Source of the DNA: a virus
Lineage: Duplodnaviria; Heunggongvirae; Uroviricota; Caudoviricetes
DNA: 28,644 nucleotides
Direction: 5' to 3' (one strand)
Virus record (IMG/VR): IMGVR_UViG_2711768060_000004
Coordinates: 1 to 28,644 of that record
The translations under genes and the position numbers were made by a program. Positions 15,316 through 16,833 of this stretch are shown here, piece by piece (position 1 is the stretch's first letter; the number at the start of each line of letters is the position of its first letter). The notes below the pieces were generated by a model, which made no database searches, was not told the DNA's origin, and saw nothing but the letters and a program-made list of their open reading frames with translations.

Positions 15316-16362
15316 TTAACGACTATTTTTTATTTCGCTTACAGTCTGATTAAATCTCTCTTCTTCCAGTTCTACGCCAATAGCGCGACGCCCTAGCGAC
15401 AATGCTGCTTTTATTGTGGAACCTGACCCCATAAAAAAGTCAGCGACCAAATCACCGGGACGACTGCTGGCCTCGATTATCTGCCGCAACATATCTGCCG
15501 GTTTTTCACAGGGATGTTTGCCGGGGTAATACTGCACAGACTTGTGCGTCCAGACATCCGTATACGGAACGGCAGCCGATACGGAAAAATAACGCCGCAA
15601 AGATTTGTACTCTTCCAGCAGACTGGCATATTGCCGGTTCAGTTCACTGCATGTGCTGACCAGCTGGTGGTGTGGCTTTTCCAGTTCCCCGCGCTGATGC
15701 TTTTCTGCTGCAACACGCGCAAACAATGCCTGCAGTTTTCTGTAATCAGCTTCGTTCGGTAACTGCCACTGACTGGCACCAAACCAGTGCGAAGCCATAT
15801 TTTTCTTTCCGGTGGCTTCCGCTATCTGTTTTGACGTTATTCCCAGTGATTCACGCGCATCACGAAAGTAAGAAATCAGCGGGGCCATGACGCGCTGTTT
15901 TAGCTCGCGCCCCTTTGCCGCATAGCCGTCATTTTTTGGCTGGTATGGCCCCTGATAATGTTCGGCAAACAGAATGCGCTCTGTTGCCGGGAAATACGCC
16001 CGCAGGCTTTCCTTGTTGCATCCGTTCCAGCGTCCGGACGGCTTCGCCCAGATAATGTGATTCAGCACATTAAAGCGCTCACGCATCATGATTTCGATAT
16101 CAGATGCCAGGCGATGACCACAGAACAGGTAGAGACTTCCGGCAGGTTTCAGTACCCGCCAGAATTGCGCCAGACACTGATCCAGCCATTTCAGGTAATC
16201 ATCGTCGCCCTTCCACTGGTTATCCCAGCCCTCGGGCTTCACTTTAAAGTATGGCGGGTCTGTGACTATCAGATCGACAGAGTTTTCCGGTAAGGTCTGG
16301 ATAAATTCCAGGCAATCAGCGTTGATTAATTCACAACTGGATATTTTTACAGTATTAGCCAT
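15316..16362 (-). CDS. DNA methyltransferase (beta-class N6-adenine or N4-cytosine; motif IV DPPY before motif I)
   Basis: 348 aa; LIVTDPPYF near the N-terminus and DFFMGSGST (FxGxG SAM-binding) near the C-terminus, with a long insert between as target-recognition domain. No restriction endonuclease gene adjacent. Confidence 0.8.
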   Translation of the reverse strand: MANTVKISSCELINADCLEFIQTLPENSVDLIVTDPPYFKVKPEGWDNQWKGDDDYLKWLDQCLAQFWRVLKPAGSLYLFCGHRLASDIEIMMRERFNVLNHIIWAKPSGRWNGCNKESLRAYFPATERILFAEHYQGPYQPKNDGYAAKGRELKQRVMAPLISYFRDARESLGITSKQIAEATGKKNMASHWFGASQWQLPNEADYRKLQALFARVAAEKHQRGELEKPHHQLVSTCSELNRQYASLLEEYKSLRRYFSVSAAVPYTDVWTHKSVQYYPGKHPCEKPADMLRQIIEASSRPGDLVADFFMGSGSTIKAALSLGRRAIGVELEEERFNQTVSEIKNSR

Positions 16363-16512
16363 AGATCAATAAGCACTTCTCTGATAGGCTCATACCGCTT
16401 TTGCGCAAAGCAGATGGGCCTGAGGTTTGCTTGTGACCCCAACGCATGAGCAGATGGCTGGCAGGTGCCGCTAACACCCACCAGCCGCCCATTACCACAA
16501 ATTAAAAAGCCT

Positions 16513-16710
16513 TCACTGCGGAAGGCGTCTGTAACAACCGAACTGATAATCAGCCAGACCCGCCATAACAAGCTGAGTCAGTATTAACTGGCATCGTTCG
16601 CGTGAAAGGTAAGTATTCTGCGCAATTTCCCCGACGGTCGCCGGTTCGGTGACGCTTAATTCATTAAACACCACTCTGGCGGTTTCGGTCATATCCTGCT
16701 GTATTAGCAT
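16513..16710 (-). CDS. Small protein (65 aa), possible winged-helix DNA-binding protein
   Basis: Track ORF 16513..16833 trimmed to the ATG at about 16710 (AAAGGG Shine-Dalgarno), which lies downstream of the tR'-like terminator: MLIQQDMTETARVVFNELSVTEPATVGEIAQNTYLSRERCQLILTQLVMAGL. Confidence 0.4.
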   Translation of the reverse strand: MLIQQDMTETARVVFNELSVTEPATVGEIAQNTYLSRERCQLILTQLVMAGLADYQFGCYRRLPQ

Positions 16711-16833
16711 GCCTTTTTCCCTTTTCTGGTTAACGTGACATACCAATAACTCTTGTCGAAACAGCCAGCAAGCTGAAAGACCAGTATTCACAACCACCAG
16801 CGCGTTTAACGTCCTGTACCGTTTTTCTGGCAT

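Follow-up and report, generated by a model that had tools for sequence, protein, structure and literature searches.

The minus strand of the lambdoid prophage studied here (IMG/VR virus record IMGVR_UViG_2711768060_000004, positions 1 to 28,644, referred to in full as the window) carries, behind its Q antiterminator gene, a compact cassette of three parts: a gene for a small winged-helix protein, a structured RNA leader and a gene for a DNA methyltransferase of the M.EcoGII family (Table 1). Taken as a whole, the best explanation of our results, to which we assign a probability of roughly 65%, is that this cassette provides a late, tightly gated, Mom-like hypermethylase for anti-restriction. 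What is new compared with a preliminary description of the same DNA, made from the sequence alone, is the strictly conserved cassette with its covarying RNA leader, which is absent from Rfam 15 and from the literature searched.

The methyltransferase and the small protein that accompanies it

The methyltransferase has a single Pfam match, N6_N4_Mtase (PF01555, E = 2.6e-45, residues 29-340), and shows the motif order of the beta class, with an N-terminal DPPY (residues 35-38, codons at window positions 16260-16249), a central target-recognition domain and a C-terminal FxGxG motif for binding S-adenosylmethionine (SAM), which reads F-M-G-S-G (residues 310-314, codons at 15435-15421). The beta-class assignment of the preliminary description is thus borne out. 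A Dam (GATC) homologue is ruled out, as the order is beta and not alpha and the Pfam family is N6_N4_Mtase and not MethyltransfD12. That description had named a well-known Dam homologue with a documented role as the finding that would speak against its idea; a characterised homologue does exist, M.EcoGII, but it is not a Dam/GATC enzyme. All NCBIfam matches lie far below their cut-offs, and the PDB holds no close relative with a solved structure, the best sequence match there covering the catalytic halves only (E = 3e-25).

Over its full length and with two single-residue gaps, the enzyme shares 297 of 347 residues (86%) with M.EcoGII, whose sequence was machine-read from the PDF of Table S1 of the SUPREM paper (PMC11551740); this identity is good to about 1%. 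Its identity is 89% with the reconstructed ancestor Anc291 and 86% with the enzyme of phage 1720a-02, which the authors of M.EcoGII called "very similar" to theirs (PMC5778455). The target-recognition domain and the charged interdomain linker (approximately residues 215-262) both align with M.EcoGII throughout. M.EcoGII modifies adenine whatever the context, stays unexpressed in the lysogen and makes clones sick if its expression is constitutive (PMC5778455); six out of six reconstructed ancestors were active on DNA and RNA, and motif-free methylation was verified on RNA for M.EcoGII, Anc291 and SUPREM (PMC11551740). Homologues of M.EcoGI/II in O111 Shiga toxin-producing E. coli left no detectable methylation motif in the lysogen (PMC6602927). 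We strongly infer by homology that the window's enzyme methylates N6 of adenine in essentially any context: because M.EcoGII and Anc291 are both non-site-specific, the target can be taken to be all adenines, contrary to the earlier view that it cannot be read from the sequence. Judged by its sequence, the enzyme itself is ordinary, a further allele of a characterised kind of prophage enzyme in its usual place.

DNA searches recovered the 1.5-kilobase pair of small gene and methyltransferase gene in phiP27, SfV, phage 1720a-02 and many phages encoding the Shiga toxins (Stx) Stx2a, Stx2c and Stx2d, and a near-full-length copy was present in 580 of 5,426 complete E. coli genomes. In a scan seeded with the small protein, with one genome per species, an M.EcoGII-like methyltransferase was encoded downstream in 32 of the 33 testable loci across Enterobacterales, separated by a spacer of 134-153 nucleotides (nt); the sole exception, L019, is a decayed remnant (3980-4320). 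When the methyltransferase served as the seed, the small gene was found about 150 nt upstream in all 77 testable IMG/VR loci and the leader in all 80, and in two more distant sets the covariance model detected the leader element in 72 of 80 and about 53 of 69 loci. BLASTP of the window's small protein (and a small hidden Markov model) gave no match to the 76-amino-acid (aa) open reading frame (ORF) upstream in divergent loci; profile-profile comparison showed the divergent small ORFs to be its homologues (94.9% probability, E = 4.7e-8). In phage 1720a-02 the methyltransferase gene likewise follows this small gene and leader, N15 has the order gp51, leader, gp52, and the cassette is also found in PY54 and phiKO2; the methyltransferase family extends to VHML and to Vibrio and Aeromonas phages. 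In many Stx2a, Stx2c and Stx2d phages the cassette is placed after Q and before stx; in N15-type and further distant phages it lies directly 5′ of the holin and endolysin genes. Since the Q alleles and families differ between cassette loci, the trio moves as a unit. We found no description of this architecture of small gene, leader and methyltransferase in the literature searched.

Some loci look disrupted. In L019 the small gene encodes an altered N-terminus, the leader can be followed undamaged as far as P3, and the methyltransferase is replaced by unrelated sequence. In some E. coli genomes (hits H26 and H36) the match is broken into two pieces, and in H26 a PemK/MazF-family toxin gene is annotated beneath it, suggesting an insertion inside or beside the cassette.

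The mechanically called ORF of the small protein (16513..16833, 106 aa) is too long: conservation in alignment A1 begins at the ATG at 16710, which leaves 65 aa, and a GGG Shine-Dalgarno-like element lies 8 nt 5′ of this codon. The preliminary description had suspected a 65-aa winged-helix protein, and the structural evidence agrees with it. The AlphaFold2 model (mean predicted local distance difference test score, pLDDT, 86.9) has the winged-helix topology H1-H2-H3-beta-beta, and the top Foldseek matches are the winged helix of IclR/PcaR (TMq score 0.82), the N-terminal winged helix of O-methyltransferases and the RNA-binding winged helix of SelB. The Pfam winged-helix matches (TrmB, MarR_2 and DprA_WH) are all below cut-off, and there is no HTH_3/XRE match in the protein. 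The ratio of non-synonymous to synonymous substitution rates is about 0.04-0.15 against relatives, with synonymous sites saturated, indicating strong purifying selection. Conservation is highest at RCQLILTQL, presumably the recognition helix; it exposes R, Q, T and Q, residues commonly seen in contact with bases. This maximum is partly biased, because the peptide was among the search patterns. The strict and ancient co-occurrence with the methyltransferase supports a functional link, and the small protein is most likely a dedicated regulator acting on the leader or on adjacent conserved DNA. The preliminary description had put it forward as a candidate controller but had overlooked the structured RNA that lies between the two genes.

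The alternative that survives best, which we nevertheless consider unlikely, is that the small protein is no nucleic-acid-binding regulator and instead a partner of the methyltransferase at the protein level, such as an inhibitor, a chaperone or an antitoxin-like protein. It would bind the basic target-recognition domain and linker and curb the toxic activity until late infection, which would suit an acidic protein (pI 4.8; mostly 4.4-5.6 in the family) next to an enzyme whose residues 121-265 are basic (pI 9.0-9.6). The best Foldseek matches include winged-helix dimerisation domains of SAM-dependent O-methyltransferases, constitutive M.EcoGII harms cells, the linkage of the two genes is near-universal, and the position of the small gene relative to the late promoter varies, as N15 shows. 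Yet M.EcoGII is fully active on its own (PMC5778455, PMC11551740), and at locus L061 a small protein only 52% identical to the window's adjoins a methyltransferase that is 93% identical. That the presumed recognition helix is the best-conserved part, with the search bias already mentioned, also argues for a regulator that contacts nucleic acid.

The leader and the start of the methyltransferase gene

The leader is predicted to fold into two hairpins, P1 and P3, and a long-range helix, P2, whose strands are about 60 nt apart and whose 3′ strand borders the methyltransferase start codon. Its minimum-free-energy z-score is -2.9. The leader is far better conserved than neutral sites, since its identity is 74-79% in sequence pairs that differ at 62-86% of synonymous sites. 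In the close set (A3), 94.8% of the cells were paired compared with 31-42% in slid controls, 15 pairs showed compensatory changes, and the observed values were reached by 0 of 500 shuffles. The divergent set (A5) gave compensatory changes at 35 of 41 pairs and 84.7% paired cells against 30-39% in slid controls, pair counts that are inflated because this alignment was fitted to the model structure. P2 occurs in three covarying variants, AAGC/GCUU, GGA/UCC and GGGC/GCCC.

An alternative somewhat less probable than the protein partner is that the spacer acts as a DNA element (operator or palindrome), an independent small RNA or an RNase III site, unrelated to translation of the methyltransferase. 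As a long, near-perfect inverted repeat, P1 could serve as a palindrome for a dimeric binder or as a substrate of RNase III; in eight loci the gene behind the element is a com-like ORF and not the methyltransferase; and the annotation of N15 places a terminator at the hairpin immediately 5′ of the element. Against this, paired positions hold 128 G.U compared with 26 A.C combinations, and because of this excess an RNA on the mRNA strand is favoured over a DNA palindrome; moreover, the covarying P2 is a long-range helix, and the end of the element always coincides with the start codon of the next gene.

Of 48 different initiation regions of the methyltransferase gene, none offers a match of at least 5 nt to a Shine-Dalgarno sequence; the sole candidate there, CAGAG or AAAAAAGG, is a run of purines at a distance of 12-19 nt 5′ of the start. 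The predicted unpaired probability of the 13 nt 5′ of the AUG is 0.14-0.45 in four representatives. Because the start codon lacks a Shine-Dalgarno sequence and the 13 preceding nucleotides are paired in P2, translation of the methyltransferase would, from the structure, be throttled or gated after transcription. A natural variant is found in L044 (2890-3012), where 40 nt are deleted between two copies of CATCTGCT. P3 is thereby halved and P2 left without its 5′ strand, and the methyltransferase start should be constitutively unpaired.

Further pairings and coding possibilities in the leader were considered and rejected. Translational coupling by way of a leader peptide or a conserved ORF in the spacer does not fit, as the frame opened by an invariant AUG ends after 4, 7, 18, 33 or 45 codons depending on the taxon, and its phase relative to the methyltransferase varies. 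A P0 pairing (CUGUG/UCACA) as an anti-P2 switch can form in 89% of cells, at positions that are almost all invariant, and 24 of 500 shuffles reach this value. The alternative hairpin GUGAGC/GCUUAC, seen in some minimum-free-energy folds, is not kept in Proteus-type leaders. The prophage anti-sRNAs AgvB and AsxR, with lengths of 51-60 nt, map to another place, 3′ of the moron. Positions 16363-16512 had no match in Rfam 15, neither at the gathering threshold nor at E <= 10, and the N15 version gave at E <= 1 just weak matches of chance level (ctRNA_pGA1, E about 0.4, far under the gathering score). Among the 57 phage records that hold the element, none has an RNA or regulatory annotation on the leader, and three carry a hypothetical-protein coding sequence across it. 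In N15 (L267, 985-1491) the start of gene 52 is annotated 234 nt too far downstream, the true ATG by homology being at locus position 1480, and a "putative terminator" (1322-1343) and a promoter are annotated between the winged-helix homologue gp51 and the leader.

Parallels with other systems and proposed control

Between leader and methyltransferase, eight distant loci and Vibrio phage Valp1 carry a Com-like zinc-ribbon ORF of 38-41 aa (RCxNCNxxL...KCxRCK); in Valp1 it is annotated merely as a hypothetical protein. In pairwise BLASTP this ORF matches Mu Com with E = 4e-6 and all four zinc-ligand cysteines aligned, and Zn_ribbon_Com is its top Pfam match, at a sub-threshold E = 0.039. The window's spacer contains no Com-like ORF, and the small protein is not a zinc ribbon. 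In phage Mu, Com activates translation of the toxic mom gene. Mu-like prophages are known in which com homologues lie 5′ of unrelated non-specific adenine methyltransferases that replace mom (PMC3299994). By this analogy, the M.EcoGII family appears to be wired like mom in at least some phages.

The window's cassette as we picture it shares with Mu com-mom a late, toxic gene for DNA adenine modification that serves anti-restriction, a start site occluded by RNA and a small controller protein encoded upstream. It differs in lacking Com, its winged helix having only two conserved cysteines in place of a zinc ribbon, in an enzyme that is a SAM-dependent methyltransferase and not Mom, in a leader of about 150 nt with three helices compared with the single stem-loop of Mu, and in a promoter that is Q-antiterminated as opposed to C-protein-activated. 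The closest known enzymes, M.EcoGII and M.EcoGI of E. coli O104:H4 C227-11, are likewise prophage-borne orphans of about 349 aa with beta-class order (Murray et al. 2018, PMC5778455); that publication dealt with the enzyme by itself and says nothing of a small gene 5′ of it or of a structured leader. Hia5, Hin1523 and Nma1821 (Drozdz et al. 2012, PMC3299994) are also (nearly) non-specific prophage enzymes producing N6-methyladenine (m6A) that stand in for Mom, with a small regulator gene 5′ and silence under laboratory conditions, but they form an unrelated family of about 281 aa, which the authors aligned with Dam and DpnII-type enzymes; they reside in Mu-like and not lambdoid phages and have Com as regulator. 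The C proteins of restriction-modification systems, too, are small DNA-binding proteins encoded just 5′ of a modification or restriction gene; unlike the window's winged helix, which has no endonuclease to serve, they are XRE-type helix-turn-helix proteins that act on C-boxes and time the endonuclease.

A bolder reading, which we regard as possible rather than probable, is that the leader represents a new class of cis-regulatory RNA that would occlude the methyltransferase start and be opened, or kept shut, by the winged-helix protein, a counterpart of Com with an unrelated fold, in an ancient module guarding a toxic enzyme. The module occurs in the Stx, phiP27 and SfV phages of E. coli and as far away as N15, PY54 and phiKO2, with a variant in Vibrio phage Valp1.

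Returning to the gated hypermethylase, its control can be pictured as follows. From its position, the cassette would be transcribed only when Q lets RNA polymerase from the candidate late promoter PR′ pass the terminator tR′, and the polymerase would also have to pass the second terminator-like hairpin, which encloses the stop codon of the small gene. Because transcription would need this Q-dependent read-through, the cassette should be silent in the lysogen, which agrees with published findings that M.EcoGI/II are silent there and that constitutive expression is toxic. Thus, several layers of control might act in succession, antitermination through one or two terminators and then a weak, occluded start site, with the small winged-helix protein, as the obligate cassette partner, regulating via the leader or the adjacent DNA. 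In lytic growth, the enzyme would hypermethylate the replicating phage DNA, and the progeny DNA would then resist many restriction systems of the next host, a service like that of Mom to phage Mu and of Hia5-type enzymes to Mu-like prophages.

It is improbable that the main role is instead an epigenetic or RNA-related one, with m6A placed on phage or host RNA, or on DNA for recombination, packaging or late expression. M.EcoGII does act on RNA and single-stranded DNA, and a 2025 PNAS study that used this enzyme reportedly found RecA-mediated recombination to be enhanced by m6A. Against such a role stand the RNA activity of M.EcoGII, about 100-fold below its DNA activity (Table S3, PMC11551740), the position just 5′ of the lysis genes in many phages, which parallels Mu mom, and the non-specific methyltransferases that fill the mom position in Mu-like prophages (PMC3299994). 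A literature search for methylation upon prophage induction gave nothing relevant. Very improbable, finally, is a site-specific enzyme with a target other than all adenines: most of the divergence from M.EcoGII falls in residues 121-280 and the nearest site-specific relative, M.PflMI, shares the fold, but the sequence sits between M.EcoGII and Anc291 and retains the highly charged interdomain linker that separates the family from M.PflMI, which is without it (PMC11551740).

Several points weigh against the gated, Mom-like hypermethylase. Anti-restriction is a role that the literature has proposed and not demonstrated. The activity of the window's allele is deduced from homology, 14% of its residues differ from M.EcoGII, mostly in the target-recognition domain (residues 121-280), and the reference copy of M.EcoGII holds a few evident reading errors. 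The PR′ candidate matches the consensus at 8 of 12 positions, which is under the threshold of the promoter scanner, and the small gene of N15-type phages lies upstream of the late promoter and so outside that transcript. With a pI of 4.8, the small protein would be unusual among nucleic-acid binders that stand alone. A throttling of translation by P2, and any factor that opens this helix, are suppositions. The pair counts of alignment A5 are inflated by its fit to the model structure.

Prophage context and significance

On the minus strand, the genes follow each other in the order DUF968/HNH (17981-19030), RusA (17609-17968), Q, the 65-aa ORF, the methyltransferase, tRNA-Thr and tRNA-Gly. Among the flanking proteins scanned with Pfam and PADLOC, none matched a restriction endonuclease or defence family, the neighbours being Q, RusA, DUF968, the two tRNAs, a 194-aa protein and a TerB-like protein, and the methyltransferase is accordingly an orphan, as had been claimed. 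The claim that these are the first genes after a Q-dependent terminator also stands as far as the Q gene and the terminator are concerned, with PR′ assigned from the layout.

Table 1 Features of the cassette and its surroundings; positions are those of the window unless a locus is named
Feature	Position	Strand	Remarks and basis
Methyltransferase gene, M.EcoGII-family, predicted non-specific N6-adenine DNA methyltransferase	15316..16362	minus	348 aa; homology and Pfam
Structured RNA leader	16363..16512	minus	alignments A2, A3, A5; covariance model R1
Leader P1 hairpin	16492-16446	minus	
Leader P2	16439-16428 paired with 16375-16363	minus	3′ strand is the 13 nt directly 5′ of the methyltransferase ATG
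Leader P3 hairpin	16420-16387	minus	
Hairpin around the stop codon of the small gene, then U5	16504..16526	minus	second terminator-like site, directly 5′ of the leader
Winged-helix protein gene	16513..16710	minus	65 aa, acidic, pI 4.8; PHROG 331 (function unknown)
Conserved non-coding block, CTTGCTG-N12-CAAGAGTTATTGGTATGTCAC / CTTGCTG-N12-CAGAGTTATCTGTATGTCA	16735..16772	minus	alignment A4, 31 loci
tR′-like intrinsic terminator, CCCGC-loop-GCGGG then U7	16834..16857	minus	sequence and relatives
Candidate late promoter PR′ and -10-like repeat	16894..16939	minus	read off the sequence
Q antiterminator gene	16923..17618	minus	231 aa; Pfam Phage_antiter_Q PF06323, E = 1.3e-84
Com-like ORFs of distant loci	L239, L241-L243, L250, L259, L260, L263 (about 1320-1487); L266 1361-1486		L266 is Vibrio phage Valp1

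The PR′ candidate consists of a -35 element TTGCAA (16939-16934) that overlaps the end of the Q gene, a 17-nt spacer and a -10 element TACATT (16916-16911), followed at 16900-16894 by the -10-like repeat TTGATAT, which could be a pause or Q-loading element. The layout TTGCAA-N17-CATATT...TTTGATATG recurs 5′ of the terminator in L004, L006, L007 and L030 together with different Q alleles. The tR′-like terminator, with 5 G-C pairs, lies 66 nt past the Q stop codon and directly before position 16833. In most of 23 upstream regions a similar G+C-rich hairpin with a T-run is found 85-130 nt 5′ of the small-gene ATG, commonly CCCGC..GCGGG plus T6-7 with some variants; two of these regions, L010 and L016, have no terminator-like hairpin. 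The stem of the second hairpin, at the end of the small gene, covaries among relatives, and N15-type phages have a strong terminator at the same place relative to the leader, with an annotated late promoter 5′ of it. The conserved block beginning with CTTGCTG is found 25-60 nt 5′ of the small gene in nearly all Enterobacterales cassettes and could be an operator or a piece of structure in the 5′ untranslated region; a sigma-70 promoter in this block was dropped because both hexamers match poorly.

Lambdoid PR′-qut-tR′ late control gives rise to short PR′ transcripts such as StxS and IsrK. The window resembles this arrangement in its Q gene, promoter, -10-like repeat and close terminator, and differs in that its cassette adds the second terminator-like hairpin and the structured leader. 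In Rfam, the PR′-to-tR′ region (16832-16937, minus strand) matched two Hfq-binding RNAs of Salmonella prophages below threshold, IsrK (E = 0.18) and IsrJ (E = 0.32); a terminated RNA of about 68 nt that resembles StxS/IsrK may be encoded there.

Directly 3′ of the methyltransferase lie genes for tRNA-Thr(UGU) and tRNA-Gly(UCC) (14995-15148, minus strand), with a sigma-70-like site that matches at 10 of 12 positions (15237-15210) in the 167-nt gap that separates them from the methyltransferase gene; this arrangement is similar to that of Stx phages, which have tRNA genes 5′ of stx. The window's cassette takes up the "moron" slot that in those phages holds stx. The slot occupied by stx in related phages is filled further on by a 194-aa ORF (14108-14692, minus strand; PHROG 5091, phrog_5091, function unknown), which has no Pfam, NCBIfam or PADLOC match and is preceded by two terminator-like hairpins (14753-14734 and 14716-14699). 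Between the moron slot and the presumed lysis genes, a TerB-like protein of 141 aa is encoded (13513-13938, minus strand; PF05099, E = 4.9e-7; PHROG 632, "tellurite resistance"), a gene found in only some cassette relatives. In the nin region, a match to the sok antitoxin RNA (20006-20178, minus strand; Rfam RF01794, 93.7 bits, E = 3.9e-20) indicates a hok/sok-type toxin-antitoxin locus.

M.EcoGII has been characterised and is sold as a reagent, and the window's enzyme adds little to it. How toxic, lysogen-silent enzymes of this type are held off and then released is a question that nobody has explained, and the pairing of the leader with the start region, the linked winged-helix protein and the Com-like ORFs of relatives make it directly testable. 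Because the cassette lies between Q and stx in many Stx phages, its terminator-like hairpin and leader would be part of the transcript that carries the Shiga toxin mRNA. Should progeny DNA indeed be hypermethylated, there would be consequences for the hosts that Stx phages can reach across restriction barriers and for the sensitivity of these phages to m6A-dependent (type IV) restriction.

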